From a bacterium (GTDB lineage Bacteria > Zhuqueibacterota > Zhuqueibacteria > Residuimicrobiales > Krinioviventaceae): a stretch of 64,000 nucleotides of DNA. How positions within the stretch are numbered: position 1 is the first letter of the stretch; every line of letters starts with the position of its first letter. Positions 17,476 to 60,347 of the stretch are shown piece by piece. The translations under genes were made by a program, and so were the position numbers. The stretch lies in NCBI GenBank assembly GCA_029561455.1, contig JAKQIY010000076.1:5150-69149 (forward strand). Reading direction: 5' to 3'. The notes under the pieces are model-generated. The model worked only from the letters and a program-made list of their open reading frames with translations. It searched no databases and was not told the origin of the DNA.

Positions 17476-18723
17476 TTAATGCAAACGTCCCAAATGAATG
17501 GTCTCTTCATACAAGTCCATTATGCGGGCATAATGTTCATCAGGCGAAAATAACAATTCCGCTTTGCGGCGGCCATGTTTTCCCATACTGATCGTAGTCA
17601 ACGGTTGTTCGCTTAATAGTTTTACTTTTTTTACAAAATCATCGGTATCCCCGGCTGTAAACACATACCCATCCACCCTCTCTTCAATCAACTCCGGAAT
17701 TCCACCAATCCGCGCGCCCAGGATCGCATTACCTAGCGAAAGCGATTCGTATATTGCCAGCGGCGAATTATCATGACATAATGAAGGCATGACCGTAAAA
17801 GCAGCATGCGAAATAATATTGCGTAATTCATCACCGGATTTATAGCCAAGCATCTCAACGTTGTCAAGTTTATAGAGGCTGATCCGGTTACGAATTTCTT
17901 CATCCAACGGACCGGTGCCGATGAGAACTAATTTAATGCTCTTTATATACCGCATTGCATCCACCAGAAACAAAACCCCTTTTTCAACCGACATTCGGCC
18001 TGCATAGACAAAATAATCGGATTTTCCATAATGGGGTTCAAAAGACTGCACATCCAGTGTATAGGGCAGGGTTCTGATGGGTTTGTTTTCATATCCATAC
18101 TCCGCCATTTTCTTTGCCAAAAAGGCGCTGGGAGCATGAAACACGTCCACCTGGTTTTTATATGATTTTAAAAGCTGATGATAAGTCGCCTCCATAGCTA
18201 CCAACATACTGGCGCCATAGCTGTTGCGAAAACATTTTTTTACAGCGGCTTTCCAGAAATACCGGCCACGGCATGCCTCACACACCTTGTTATTACCATC
18301 CAGAAAAACAATGTTGGGACATACCAGTTTGAAATCATGGCAAGTTAAAATGACCGGGATATTATAATCATGAAGGGTTTTTAAAATAGCCGGGGAAATA
18401 TGATGATATACACTGTGCACATGAGCAATATCCGGCCGGGTTTCTTCAATTAGCATGGCCAGCTTACGCTGCGCTTCGCGGTTGTAAATTACCCGCGCCG
18501 CCCTTTTCATGGTCGTCAGGGGATTTTTACTCTCCCGCAATTGTTCGGGATTAAAATAAGAGACAAAATAATCGGAATATGGCGAAGGGAAATTTTTAGG
18601 GTGTTGCATGGAAAAGGGTATAACATGATCGCCTTTTTTATTCAAGAGCTCGCTTAAATTAAAGACATAACGTTCGGCGCCGCCTTCGATATAGTAAAAT
18701 TTGTGAATCATTAACACGTTCAT
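17476..18723 (-). CDS. GT4-family glycosyltransferase
   Basis: Starts MNVLMIHKFYYIEGGAERY. Cys cluster LVCPN...CEAC. C-terminal motif PSLCHDNSPLAIYESLSLGNAILGARIGGIPELI. The track ORF starts at a TTG at 18741; the ATG at 18723 is the more likely start. Confidence 0.85.
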   Translation of the reverse strand: MNVLMIHKFYYIEGGAERYVFNLSELLNKKGDHVIPFSMQHPKNFPSPYSDYFVSYFNPEQLRESKNPLTTMKRAARVIYNREAQRKLAMLIEETRPDIAHVHSVYHHISPAILKTLHDYNIPVILTCHDFKLVCPNIVFLDGNNKVCEACRGRYFWKAAVKKCFRNSYGASMLVAMEATYHQLLKSYKNQVDVFHAPSAFLAKKMAEYGYENKPIRTLPYTLDVQSFEPHYGKSDYFVYAGRMSVEKGVLFLVDAMRYIKSIKLVLIGTGPLDEEIRNRISLYKLDNVEMLGYKSGDELRNIISHAAFTVMPSLCHDNSPLAIYESLSLGNAILGARIGGIPELIEERVDGYVFTAGDTDDFVKKVKLLSEQPLTTISMGKHGRRKAELLFSPDEHYARIMDLYEETIHLGRLH

Positions 18724-18784
18724 TAACGCTGCACTCTCCAAATTAAGTTATCAGTAAAGGTCAATATATACTAAAGGTTTCTGG

Positions 18785-19909
18785 TTAGCTGTTTTTCATA
18801 ACCCACTTTTCATAAATATCTTCAAAACGTTTGACCTGCAATTCAAGAGAGAATTCATTTTCAACGCGCCGGCGGCCATTTTCACCCAATTCCCGGGCGC
18901 GGGCCGGGTTGGTCAGCAGGGCAAGCAATGCTTCAGCCAGCAGCGCGGGATTTTCCACCGGAACCAGGATGCCGGTCTGTTCCGGATTCACCGCTTCTTT
19001 GGTGCCGTCGACCGGGGTAGCTACTACCGGTAAGCCGCACGCCATAGCTTCAAGAACCACATTCGGCAAGCCCTCGAATAATGACGGCAGGGTAAAAATG
19101 TCAAAAGTATTGAGCAGATCGGGAATATCATCACGGTAGCCAAGGAAATGCACCATATTTGCCAGGCCCATTTCATTGACCTGCTTTTCCAGAATGTCCC
19201 GATCCGGGCCGCCGCCTACCAGCACGAACCTGGTTTGTGGCGCTTTTTCCTGAATGATCCGGGCGGCCTGGAACAAAAAAGTATGCCCCTTTTGCGGCTG
19301 CAACCGCGCTACCATACCGATGACCGGGGCTTCGGCGGGAATTCCAAGCTGGGCTTTTAATTGTATATTCCTGTCCGTCCTGAATCGTTGCAGATCAACG
19401 CCATAAGGAATAACGGTTATTTGCCGCTCGGCTACGCCCCGTTCCTCGTGTAGCCATTTTGCCGTCGCCTGCGAAACGGATATCACCTGGTCGGCCAGTT
19501 TAATAGCTGCCCGGTAGGGATACAACCGTCGAGGTAACAGCCATAAGGGCGAAGATATTGTTTCCCACGAAAATACGGCTTTAGCGCCCGCCCATTTACC
19601 CACCAGGGCAGCCATAAAATCGGCATAAAACAGGGTCGACATGATTACATCGATCTTTTCCCGGCGGATCAATTCTCTTAACCGCCATATCAGGGAAATG
19701 TCAAACTGGTTGCGGCGTTTCAGGGTAACGTAACGCAACCCAAGCCGTTCCAACTGCTCCGGGAAATAATCACCCATGCCAAAATTACATACCAGGGTAT
19801 TGAACCGGCTTGAATCCATCCGGTGAACCAGTTCCCATAATTTTTTTTCCGCTCCCGCCCAGCCCAGACCTTCTGTCAATTGTAAAACATTAATTTTGCG
19901 ATTTTTCAT
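18785..19909 (-). CDS. GT4-family glycosyltransferase
   Basis: INVLQLTEGLGWAGAEK; PSLFEGLPNVVLEAMACGLPVVATPVDGTKEAV. Confidence 0.9.
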   Translation of the reverse strand: MKNRKINVLQLTEGLGWAGAEKKLWELVHRMDSSRFNTLVCNFGMGDYFPEQLERLGLRYVTLKRRNQFDISLIWRLRELIRREKIDVIMSTLFYADFMAALVGKWAGAKAVFSWETISSPLWLLPRRLYPYRAAIKLADQVISVSQATAKWLHEERGVAERQITVIPYGVDLQRFRTDRNIQLKAQLGIPAEAPVIGMVARLQPQKGHTFLFQAARIIQEKAPQTRFVLVGGGPDRDILEKQVNEMGLANMVHFLGYRDDIPDLLNTFDIFTLPSLFEGLPNVVLEAMACGLPVVATPVDGTKEAVNPEQTGILVPVENPALLAEALLALLTNPARARELGENGRRRVENEFSLELQVKRFEDIYEKWVMKNS

Positions 19910-19924
19910 TACGACCTGTCGTTA

Positions 19925-59148: not shown

Positions 59149-59307
59149 ACTCTTTCCGGTTGTTTAAAATAAAGTATTTATTTTATATTGACTTAAATAA
59201 TTTTAATACATTCAAATTAATAATTTTGCAGAATCATAACTTTGATTCAAAAATTGTACTATTAAAATTTATCACAACATAACCAACTGCTTTTAAACAT
59301 ATACACA

Positions 59308-59335
59308 AAAGCATGTCCGGGAAACGACATGCTTT
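59308..59335 (-). terminator. Possible terminator after 59367..60347
   Basis: AAAGCATGTC-cgggaaac-GACATGCTTT forms a 10-bp stem. On the minus strand only a weak U-tract follows (TTTTGTGT, partly inside the stem). Confidence 0.4.
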
Positions 59336-59366
59336 TTATAATTGTGCCAATCTAATTCCGAATGAT

Positions 59367-60347
59367 TTAATTATCTGTTTTATCATTCGGAGAAAAAACC
59401 CGAATGAGCTGCCTTGAAAACGATTTGGCTTTGGGTGCGCTATACTGGGCTATTTTACGGTTGATACCGTCTGCCATCATGCCGATCAATAAAATCTGCA
59501 AACCTGAAAAGCACAGGATCAGCACACTGGAAGAAACGACTTTATGGGTGAGAAAATTCAACGTAAACCCGCCGGCTTCTTCAAAAGCATACACCACGTC
59601 AAAAATAAATTTAATACCGCCAATCGCCAGGGTGAACAGAGCTGCCGGAAGAAAAATCTTTAAAGGATTGAACAACATGGATAAACGAATGACCAGGTTC
59701 ATAAATTCAACAAAATTCCAGGGGACTATTTTAGACTTGCCGGCGCGCTGGTAATAATTGATAGGCACATATTCGACTTTATAATTATCGCTTAAAAACG
59801 CTACGGTGGATGTGGTGGTAAAAGAGAAACGATCCGAAAGGATATTCAGGTATTGCATGATCAACTCTTTACGGAATATACGCAGACCGGAATTGAGATC
59901 GGGAATGTGCTCGCCGGTAACATACTCTGCCAGCTTGCGCAGCATCCATTTGGCCGGACGGCGGATCAGCGGAATGGCAACATTCTCACCCTGCCGTGAA
60001 CCGACGACCATATCGGCGTCTTTGATATATTCCAGCATTTTGGGAATTTGATCGGCGGGATAGGTATTATCGGCGTCGGTGATGAGGATCAGTTCATTTT
60101 TGGCGATCTGAATACCGGTTTTTAATGCCGCGCCATAACCGCGATTCTTTAAATGCTGCACTACCACGGCATTGGTGGTTCGGGCTTTATCGACAGTTTT
60201 ATCCCTGGAACCGTCGTCGATAATTATGATTTCATATTCAAACCCGGTTTTGGATAAAACCTGGTTTAAATCATTCACAACGGCTACTATGCCGTTTTCC
60301 TCATTATAGGCCGGAATAACTACTGAAATAGTATTTTCCATCAACAC
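59367..60347 (-). CDS. GT2 polyprenyl-phosphate-sugar synthase type (GtrB/DPM1-like) with C-terminal TM helices
   Basis: ISVVIPAYNEENGI, IIIIDDGSRDKT, ITDADNTYPADQI, and C-terminal LLIGMMADGI. Confidence 0.85.
   Translation of the reverse strand: MLMENTISVVIPAYNEENGIVAVVNDLNQVLSKTGFEYEIIIIDDGSRDKTVDKARTTNAVVVQHLKNRGYGAALKTGIQIAKNELILITDADNTYPADQIPKMLEYIKDADMVVGSRQGENVAIPLIRRPAKWMLRKLAEYVTGEHIPDLNSGLRIFRKELIMQYLNILSDRFSFTTTSTVAFLSDNYKVEYVPINYYQRAGKSKIVPWNFVEFMNLVIRLSMLFNPLKIFLPAALFTLAIGGIKFIFDVVYAFEEAGGFTLNFLTHKVVSSSVLILCFSGLQILLIGMMADGINRKIAQYSAPKAKSFSRQLIRVFSPNDKTDN

Follow-up and report, generated by a model that had tools for sequence, protein, structure and literature searches.

We analysed a window of 64,000 nucleotides (nt) from a bacterium of the GTDB phylum Zhuqueibacterota (GenBank assembly GCA_029561455.1, contig JAKQIY010000076.1, positions 5,150–69,149 of the forward strand); coordinates are those of the window, and genes are referred to by their first coordinate. 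More than 46 kb of the window is occupied by a glycan locus that extends beyond the window's right end. Among its genes are those for six multi-pass membrane proteins and six family 2 glycosyltransferases (GT2s), which an initial annotation, made from the letters alone, had read as six GT-C enzymes matched by six polyprenyl-phosphate-sugar synthases in a multi-module system for extracytoplasmic glycosylation. All open reading frames (ORFs) named there are present at the coordinates given for them, on the minus strand. The six membrane proteins are as follows (TM1, first transmembrane segment; aa, amino acids):

19925..21562, minus strand: GT-C A, 545 aa, PMT_2-type; GSDELH after TM1; PF13231 at 29.1 bits
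22860..24392, minus strand: GT-C B, 510 aa, of a family without a Pfam model; GDFWEH after TM1
37362..39152, minus strand: GT-C C, 596 aa, PMT_2-type; YDTVHYD motif; PF13231 at 44.6 bits
39162..40814, minus strand: GT-C D, 550 aa, PMT/PMT_2-type; HPDEV ('DE') motif; PF13231 at 62.7 bits and PF02366 at 47.7 bits
44189..46123, minus strand: GT-C E, 644 aa, PMT_2-type; NPDEGAH motif; PF13231 at 57.9 bits
53879..55222, minus strand: GT-C F, 447 aa, compact; FDQGAY motif; PF13231/PF02366 in homologues

Hydropathy analysis gave at least ten hydrophobic segments in all six proteins, and GT-C C carries a large soluble insert (approximately residues 240–500). Four of the enzymes matched PMT_2 (PF13231; gathering score, 26.1 bits), GT-C A marginally, and a comparison of the GT-C D sequence with the PDB returned only spurious Fab matches. 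GT-C B and GT-C F yielded nothing useful by sequence in Pfam, NCBIfam (also at E up to 10) or the PDB. AlphaFold2 models of both are all-helical membrane bundles (pLDDT of 95.4 for B and 90.3 for F), with the TM1, two juxtamembrane helices (JM1–JM2) and TM2 layout that defines the GT-C_A core (PMC12041299). The best 29 Foldseek matches of the B model in the PDB were all GT-C enzymes (query TM-score (TMq), 0.41–0.63), among them DPY19 (1.3e-7), STT3/AglB/PglB, AftA, ArnT (3e-6), ALG9/ALG12, AftD, AftB and EmbB. The first 30 matches of the F model were likewise all GT-C structures, with weak E-values (6.5e-3 upwards), and relatives of F at approximately 40% identity carry PF13231/PF02366, some of them being named GT39 or ArnT-like. 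The GT-C nature of the six proteins, as the initial annotation had it, is confirmed: four by PMT_2, B by its model and Foldseek, and F by its homologues and weaker Foldseek matches. The outcome it had named as fatal, a different fold in most of them, is not what we found. The enzymes would take lipid-phosphate-linked sugars at the outer face of the membrane.

The acidic motif that follows TM1 held up as well, being conserved in all six families or orthologue sets. D39 is invariant in an alignment of GT-C B with 62 relatives, and in the F family D39 is at least 90% conserved and Q40 invariant. The motifs of A, C, D and E are unchanged in orthologues of 59–86% identity (1–3 sequences each): GSDELH is kept in the orthologue of a 'candidate division KSB1' relative (locus L005, 65% identity), YDTVHYD in L092 and L093, and NPDEGAH in L003, L092 and L093. 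Invariant positions of the B alignment (62 sequences) are D39, P73, Y155, P156, H197 and R318. The B family comprises 3736 clusters at 50% identity with E<=1e-3, or 1016 with E<=1e-30; the extra regions of its long members matched MacB_PCD or nothing, giving no evidence of fusions. The six enzymes are mutually very distant (blastp E of 0.007 or worse), which points to old, distinct lineages rather than recent duplicates; profile–profile comparison of the B and F families, and of each profile with the C and D sequences, gave only weak matches (probability, 1–45%).

The six GT2s of the synthase class are:

36408..37358, minus strand: GT2 #1, 316 aa, AglJ/PpgS-like; PF00535; AGDGQ variant of DxD
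40814..41575, minus strand: GT2 #2, 253 aa, short PpgS/GacI-type; NCBIfam PpgS at 8.6e-24
50377..51360, minus strand: GT2 #3, 327 aa, AglJ/DPMS/GtrB-like with a C-terminal transmembrane (TM) hairpin; AglJ at 1.1e-35
51372..52337, minus strand: GT2 #4, 321 aa, ArnC-like; NCBIfam ArnC at 6.9e-38 over the full length; without DxD
52352..53308, minus strand: GT2 #5, 318 aa, closest to ArnC; C-terminal TM hairpin
59367..60347, minus strand: GT2 #6, 326 aa, AglJ/DPMS/ArnC-like; candidate partner of GT-C F

PF00535 was found in all six, and their best NCBIfam matches were ArnC, AglJ, PpgS, PgfS and the haloarchaeal dolichyl-P hexose transferase (DPhHxTase). When five were compared with the PDB, four (40814, 50377, 52352 and 59367) matched ArnC, DPMS and GtrB first, and the alignments of 50377 and 59367, as well as that of 52352 with ArnC, extended into the C-terminal membrane hairpin. 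GT2 52352 matched ArnC structures at 6e-48 over its full length and GtrB at 1.6e-27; 50377 matched DPMS at 1e-15, and its GtrB and ArnC alignments are nearly full length. For 36408 (NCBIfam AglJ 5.5e-21 and PpgS 1e-18, both under cut-off) no PDB match was found at 1e-3, so that its class, like that of 51372, is assigned from NCBIfam. Two C-terminal hydrophobic helices are present in 50377, 51372, 52352 and 59367 and at least one in 36408; 40814, whose leading PDB matches are ArnC, DPMS and GtrB, lacks the hairpin and has a single weak hydrophobic segment. DxD is present in 40814, 50377, 52352 and 59367, and reads AGD in 36408. GT2 51372 has YFTCRVN (TCRVN at the motif itself) where its paralogues have DADNQ or DGDLQ, and an orthologue of approximately 60% identity in a KSB1 metagenome-assembled genome (MAG; L003, 12959-13909) shows the same replacement, YFTCRV(N/K). 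Its closest paralogue is the neighbouring 52352, of which it may be a partner. By family resemblance, membership of all six in the polyprenyl-phosphate-sugar synthase class (ArnC/GtrB/DPMS/AglJ/PpgS-like) is confirmed, with caveats for 51372 and 40814; the earlier description of six GtrB/ArnC/DPM1-type enzymes with C-terminal helices stands in its class assignment but not for the hairpin of 40814.

Candidate flippases and parts of a Wzx/Wzy-type pathway lie among these genes:

58108..59148, minus strand: LPG_synthase_TM (MprF-N-like) protein; PF03706 at 1.2e-31; TIGR00374 flippase-like domain
35404..36411, minus strand: divergent LPG_synthase_TM-like protein adjoining GT2 #1; PF03706 in approximately 70%-identical homologues
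42681..44180, minus strand: Wzx-type flippase (Polysacc_synt_3); PF13440 at 1.6e-85
27471..28904, minus strand: second Wzx-type flippase; PF01943 and PF13440
29400..30800, minus strand: Wzy_C-domain protein (polymerase, ligase or O-oligosaccharyltransferase type); PF04932 at 3.6e-18
28965..29378, minus strand: DUF2304 small membrane protein of the GacJ/Rv3632 family; PF10066 at 5.5e-19

Both MprF-N-type proteins of the initial annotation were recovered, 58108 directly through PF03706 and 35404, which has no direct Pfam match, through its homologues. Protein 58108 is a candidate flippase for lipid-linked sugar; no GtrA, SMR or MATE match was found on the scanned window ORFs of at least 100 aa. 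The Wzy_C domain does not discriminate between polymerase, ligase and O-oligosaccharyltransferase. Short GT2 synthases (GacI, PpgS and WpsA) work with a small DUF2304 protein that activates them (bioRxiv 10.1101/180810); the DUF2304 gene of the locus lies 11 kb from the short GT2 40814.

Genes are tightly packed: between 59148 and 33021 there are approximately 25 consecutive genes, many of them overlapping and none separated from the next by more than 94 nt. The rest of the region is made up of two more tight blocks (30800-24577 and 24392-17476). The start of GT-C D overlaps the stop of GT2 40814 by 1 nt, and the gene of GT-C E overlaps that of a YdjC-family deacetylase (46107) by 17 nt, these two being probably translationally coupled. 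No tRNA genes or Rfam elements were found in the window. Larger intergenic gaps of 184, 218, 243 and 265 nt and one divergent gene pair divide the region into several transcription units, as might be expected if unrelated glycan loci had come to lie side by side by chance or through a chimeric assembly, so that the count of six plus six would have no functional meaning. Yet at least three further KSB1-like assemblies, obtained from different samples, have this gene order in common with the window, at 54–86% amino-acid identity:

L012 / L093: approximately 85% amino-acid identity
L092: approximately 60–70% amino-acid identity
GCA_016934825 (L003 and L005): 54–68% amino-acid identity

This recurrence in independent assemblies marks the cluster as a conserved unit of its lineage and not an assembly accident; it largely refutes chance juxtaposition or chimerism, which we reject as having only a very slight chance of being correct. 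The closest named relatives of the window proteins are encoded in 'candidate division KSB1 bacterium' MAGs, and the proteins also occur on metagenomic contigs from anaerobic digesters, for example JGI 3300009780 Ga0116156_10000032 (133 kb), from which the locus was read, and on one contig of 379 kb. KSB1, or Candidatus Zhuqueibacterota, belongs to the FCB group and is a phylum without a cultured member (PMC11683472).

To see how far the arrangement extends, we surveyed relatives of 53879 in one genome per GTDB species, taking 10 kb either side of each match; detection of other GT-Cs was restricted to relatives of the six window proteins. Besides two close relatives, 78 loci were obtained, most with the 53879-type GT-C alone and 11 with one synthase-like GT2; five GT2s near such a GT-C were seen in the two KSB1 relatives only. 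At four loci (L036, L038, L040 and L047), the F-family GT-C is directly followed by a 55–56% orthologue of GT2 59367, with an LPG_synthase_TM protein nearby; on the contig of L040 (also L011), a CapK-like ligase and a flavin adenine dinucleotide (FAD) oxidoreductase accompany the pair as well. The 59367/53879 pair is therefore co-inherited, and its recurrence in four lineages is genuine evidence for a joint function of 59367, 58108 and 53879. The GT2 beside an F-family GT-C in a cyanobacterium is instead a 55% orthologue of 50377. Near one B-family locus, a GtrC-type GT-C and a Wzy_C protein were found. Three consecutive GT-C genes (PMT_2, B-family and PMT_2) occur in an Elusimicrobiota MAG (GCA_044450935.1; L096, 2934-8151), with two GT2s and sugar-nucleotide enzymes within 14 kb. 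Such arrays elsewhere place six plus six at the upper end of a continuum and not in a separate category. Upstream of the F orthologue in the KSB1 MAG GCA_016934825.1 (L003, 7242-9979) lie an extra LPG_synthase_TM protein and a 571-aa DUF6798 protein, which may be a seventh module without a counterpart in the window.

The remaining genes of the locus encode cytoplasmic glycosyltransferases and modifying enzymes:

17476-18741 and 18785-19909, minus strand: two GT4 (GT-B) cytoplasmic glycosyltransferases; PF00534 and PF13439
21618..22838, minus strand: GT4, between GT-C A and B
24577-26655, minus strand: secreted Golvesin_C/GHL15-like protein
26679-27455, minus strand: S-adenosylmethionine (SAM) methyltransferase
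32072..33061, plus strand: polysaccharide deacetylase, PF01522; paired with ORF 31044-32060 (plus strand) of unknown identity
33021-33419, minus strand: VOC/glyoxalase-like protein
33406-35106, minus strand: FkbH-domain protein; TIGR01686 at 2.6e-85
35110-35403, minus strand: acyl carrier protein (ACP)-like ORF, 97 aa, with an LDSLG motif; unannotated
41575..42684, minus strand: GT4 with a DUF1972 N-terminal domain (Pfam)
46107..46952, minus strand: YdjC-family deacetylase; PF04794 at 1e-50
46963-48324, minus strand: GT4 (Pfam)
48257-49177, minus strand: non-synthase GT2, with an NCBIfam profile unlike the six synthase-class GT2s
49188-50339, minus strand: GT4 (Pfam)
53292..53849, minus strand: YdjM-family membrane hydrolase, PF04307; between GT-C F and the run of three GT2s
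55317-56621, minus strand: CapK-like adenylate-forming ligase, part of the F module
56659-58101, minus strand: FAD amine-oxidase-like oxidoreductase, part of the F module
60505-61641, minus strand: FemAB-like GNAT (Pfam)
61673-62137, minus strand: hexapeptide acyltransferase (Pfam)
62134-63057, minus strand: PF01522 deacetylase (Pfam)

Pfam bears out the six GT4s, the one extra GT2 and the three deacetylases (two PF01522 and one YdjC) counted earlier; the two Wzx proteins (27471 and 42681), Wzy_C (29400), DUF2304 (28965), the FkbH/ACP/VOC set, the CapK-like ligase, the FAD oxidoreductase, the FemAB-like GNAT, the hexapeptide acyltransferase, the methyltransferase and the Golvesin_C/GHL15-like protein are additions to that account. 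The FkbH/ACP/VOC set, all three members of which are kept in L093, suggests a glyceryl-ACP-type acyl substituent on the glycan. The 31044/32072 pair is kept in L005 and L093, and 31044 showed no similarity to the FemAB-like 60505. YdjM 53292, which relatives including L003 have retained, shares a 17-nt overlap with GT2 52352. Where the locus runs past the right end (63190-63981, minus strand, and upstream of it in L007, 1-9850), it includes an uncharacterised 536-aa protein; this protein and 24577 are both secreted, and comparison of the two gave no similarity. Also encoded in this continuation are a third LPG_synthase_TM protein, two epimerases/dehydratases of sugar nucleotides, an oxidoreductase of the GFO_IDH_MocA type, another GT4, a further hexapeptide transferase, a methyltransferase and an FAD dehydrogenase resembling GlpD.

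Taken together, the region is probably a conserved surface-glycan locus of the Wzx/Wzy type that carries several three- or four-component extracytoplasmic glycosylation modules, and a multi-module system remains the best reading of it. The Wzx, Wzy_C, DUF2304 and FkbH/ACP genes put the GT-C modules in the setting of a pathway for lipid-linked oligosaccharides. The seven cytoplasmic glycosyltransferases (six GT4 and one GT2) would assemble an oligosaccharide on a polyprenyl carrier, Wzx-type flippases would carry it through the inner membrane and the Wzy_C protein would polymerise or ligate it. Within each module, a GtrB/ArnC/DPMS/PpgS-class GT2 would load one sugar onto polyprenyl phosphate at the cytoplasmic face; this sugar, in its lipid-linked or its nucleotide form, may be altered by a deacetylase, acyltransferase or oxidoreductase; flipping of the charged lipid would fall to an LPG_synthase_TM-like or Wzx protein; and the GT-C would pass the sugar to the glycan in the periplasm. 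Synthase, flippase candidate and GT-C are contiguous in three sets: 59367/58108/53879, 36408/35404/37362 and 40814/42681/39162. With these sets, the putative modules would be 59367 / 58108 / 56659 / 55317 / 53879; 36408 / 35404 / 37362; 40814 (with DUF2304 28965) / Wzx 42681 / 39162; and YdjC 46107 / 44189, the last fed by the three-GT2 run (52352, 51372 and 50377). The three-component scheme of synthase, flippase and GT-C is documented (PMC11127046), as are the four-component GacIJKL and lactococcal schemes (PMC10821137; bioRxiv 10.1101/180810).

The analysis establishes the folds and families, the conservation of catalytic-type residues, the tight packing, the synteny and the co-inheritance of one GT2/GT-C pair, whereas the identity of donors and acceptor, the division of labour among the flippase candidates and a one-to-one pairing are inferences from these. 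The proposal that six GT-Cs are matched by six GT2s could not be sustained: three GT2/GT-C pairs are adjacent, even when 59367/53879 is counted despite four genes between them, this pair alone recurs in other lineages, and 51372 lacks DxD. Moreover, several GT-Cs can draw on one donor, as mycobacterial arabinosyltransferases do with decaprenylphosphoryl arabinose (DPA).

Several points weigh against the modular reading. GT-Cs A, B and E have no adjacent GT2. GT2 51372 is probably a pseudo-enzyme or non-canonical, to judge from the conserved loss of its DxD, which reduces the set to five plausible catalysts and one probable pseudo-enzyme. The NCBIfam equivalog cut-offs (ArnC, AglJ, PpgS and PgfS) were not reached by any of the six GT2s, even in the best case, 52352 against ArnC; we therefore give none of them one of these names and assign no sugar specificity. 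We know of no established role for LPG_synthase_TM proteins as a flippase class for polyprenyl-phosphate sugars. No gene for an initiating phosphoglycosyltransferase (Bac_transf or MraY-type), for a regulator of chain length or for an exporter in the outer membrane turned up in the window or in the 10 kb upstream of it, which leaves the classical Wzx/Wzy core incomplete in the sequence covered; the genes for all three may lie further upstream. Finally, the organism is uncultured, and the modules and their mechanism are predictions from sequence and structure models.

The missing phosphoglycosyltransferase favours a different assembly route, primed by polyprenyl monophosphate as for the lactococcal polysaccharide pellicle (PSP). 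One or more GT2s (for example, 40814 with DUF2304) would make N-acetylhexosamine (HexNAc)-P-polyprenol, GT4s would extend it, a Wzx protein would flip it, and GT-Cs would polymerise the product and transfer it to its final acceptor, so that their role would be to build the polymer and not just to decorate it. The contiguous, overlapping run of Wzx 42681, GT4 41575, GT2 40814, GT-C 39162 and GT-C 37362 fits this order, the locus has a DUF2304/GacJ homologue and there is a precedent (PMC10821137). However, the phosphoglycosyltransferase may sit outside the covered sequence (a simpler related locus, L011, begins with Bac_transf), Wzy_C supplies a conventional polymerase or ligase, and DUF2304 is 11 kb away from 40814. 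We consider this route possible though unlikely. A further, more novel reading would have a diderm FCB bacterium build, and not just decorate, a complex surface heteropolysaccharide in the periplasm by GT-Cs from at least five different polyprenyl-monophosphate-linked donors, with monophosphate priming in place of a classical phosphoglycosyltransferase (as for lactococcal PSP or mycobacterial arabinan), LPG_synthase_TM proteins as a new class of polyprenyl-P-sugar flippases, and 51372, as a catalytically dead GT2, serving as a regulatory subunit of its ArnC-like neighbour; as a whole, this combination seems rather unlikely.

Remodelling of lipid A or the lipopolysaccharide (LPS) core, in which deacetylated amino sugars delivered from polyprenyl phosphate by an ArnC/ArnD/ArnT-type route would alter surface charge, has a slim chance of accounting for the locus. 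ArnT is itself a PMT_2-type GT-C, 52352 is nearest to ArnC (6e-48 against ArnC structures) and one of the three deacetylases overlaps GT-C E. Against NCBIfam ArnC, however, 52352 scores 186 bits where the cut-off is 529, in the window we found neither an aminotransferase nor an ArnA-like formyltransferase/decarboxylase domain, and six divergent GT-Cs far exceed what lipid A would need.

Directly downstream of the glycan locus (8955-17210, minus strand) lies the gene for a 2751-aa adhesin with Big_1/Invasin_D3 repeats and a type IX secretion system (T9SS) C-terminal sorting domain. This T9SS-tailed protein fits an FCB-type diderm, and its adjacency to the glycan locus is kept in a KSB1 relative (L005). 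It could be a target of protein O-glycosylation, in which the PMT/PMT_2 GT-Cs would modify secreted or surface proteins in the manner of actinobacterial Pmt/Ppm1. PMT_2 matches in four enzymes, with PMT as well in one, the conserved adjacency of the giant adhesin and the Wzy_C family, which includes O-oligosaccharyltransferases, all point that way. PMT_2 also spans ArnT and many glycan-modifying enzymes, however, and the many GT4s, two Wzx proteins and sugar-modifying enzymes suit polysaccharide synthesis better. The D[ST][AILVMT] motif of Bacteroidota O-glycoproteins occurs 13 times in the adhesin against 11.0 +/- 3.2 in shuffles; as it is not enriched, we rejected the adhesin as a Bacteroidota-style O-glycoprotein and hold protein O-glycosylation improbable as the function of the locus. 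Further downstream, two clearly paralogous lipoprotein-like proteins of approximately 500 aa (1338-2828 and 6048-7553, both minus strand) flank LacI-type and XylR/AraC-type regulators; 6048-7553 alone has a SurA_N_3 match, which is weak.

Were the modules to work as proposed, the locus would be among the densest known concentrations of extracytoplasmic glycosylation machinery, and its many GT-Cs with many distinct lipid-linked donors would be unusual beside the donor-sharing mycobacteria. Our literature search yielded no account of a locus like this in KSB1/Zhuqueibacterota, and to that extent the novelty of scale suggested initially stands, but systems with multiple GT-Cs have precedents in mycobacteria, lactococcal PSP, the Elusimicrobiota array and Kelly et al. 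Its parts offer material for testing: protein B represents an unmodelled GT-C family of approximately 1000 clusters at 50% identity, the compact 447-aa GT-C, found repeatedly with a particular GT2 and an MprF-N-like protein, lends itself well to the definition of a new class of flippase, and the conserved DxD-less GT2 paralogue can be tested as well. The mechanism extends a well-described paradigm and would be a good target for heterologous biochemistry, though unsurprising in principle to specialists; as the host is uncultured, testing relies on heterologous expression.

Among known systems, GtrA/GtrB/Gtr* and Citrobacter ORF15/14/12 (Mann & Whitfield 2016; Kelly et al. 2024, PMC11127046) share with the locus the logic of synthase, flippase and GT-C acting on a finished or nascent glycan. 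These three-component systems have one of each part and use GtrA, SMR or MATE flippases, whereas the locus has six GT-Cs, five or six synthase-class GT2s and LPG_synthase_TM and Wzx candidates, in a host from an uncultured FCB-group phylum; 'more elaborate systems' with multiple GT-Cs were already mentioned by Kelly et al. (PMC11127046). GacI/GacJ/GacK/GacL and lactococcal WpsA/B–WpsG–WpsH/I/J (PMC10821137; bioRxiv 10.1101/180810) have in common with it a short TM-less GT2 (40814), DUF2304 (28965), Wzx (42681) and GT-Cs (39162 and 37362), and by this likeness cytoplasmic glycosyltransferases may extend a lipid-monophosphate primer. In lactococci, GT-Cs both polymerise PSP and anchor it (PMC10821137). 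The Gac and Wps systems are Gram-positive, whereas the locus has its DUF2304 gene 11 kb off the GT2 and low identity to them, under all NCBIfam cut-offs. The ArnC/ArnD/ArnE-F/ArnT pathway shares an ArnC-like GT2 (52352), deacetylase-family enzymes and PMT_2-type GT-Cs; it differs in that the locus has no ArnA/ArnB equivalents or SMR flippase and an ArnC score far under the cut-off.

The machinery for mycobacterial arabinogalactan and lipoarabinomannan (LAM) (EmbA/B/C, AftA-D, Rv3779, PpgS/Rv3632 and DprE1/E2) resembles the locus in that many GT-Cs build an extracytoplasmic glycan from polyprenyl-P sugars; the arabinogalactan region of M. tuberculosis clusters approximately six GT-C genes with very few donors. 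The locus has parallels to it in a PpgS-like GT2 with DUF2304, in the F-module FAD oxidoreductase, loosely analogous to DprE1, and in AftA, AftB, AftD and EmbB among the Foldseek matches of GT-C B. Mycobacteria combine few donors (DPA, polyprenyl-phosphomannose (PPM) and polyprenyl-P-GalNAc) with many GT-Cs, whereas the locus has five or six distinct synthases, no UbiA-type phosphoribosyl pyrophosphate (PRPP) transferase and belongs to a different phylum. The locus is an unusually large version of a known system and not a new mechanism, its parts coming from known families. It stands out for how many modules, and how many apparently distinct donors, a single conserved locus brings together; for LPG_synthase_TM-like proteins in the place usually taken by GtrA, SMR or MATE; for a conserved DxD-less GT2; and, in protein B, for a large GT-C family without a Pfam model.

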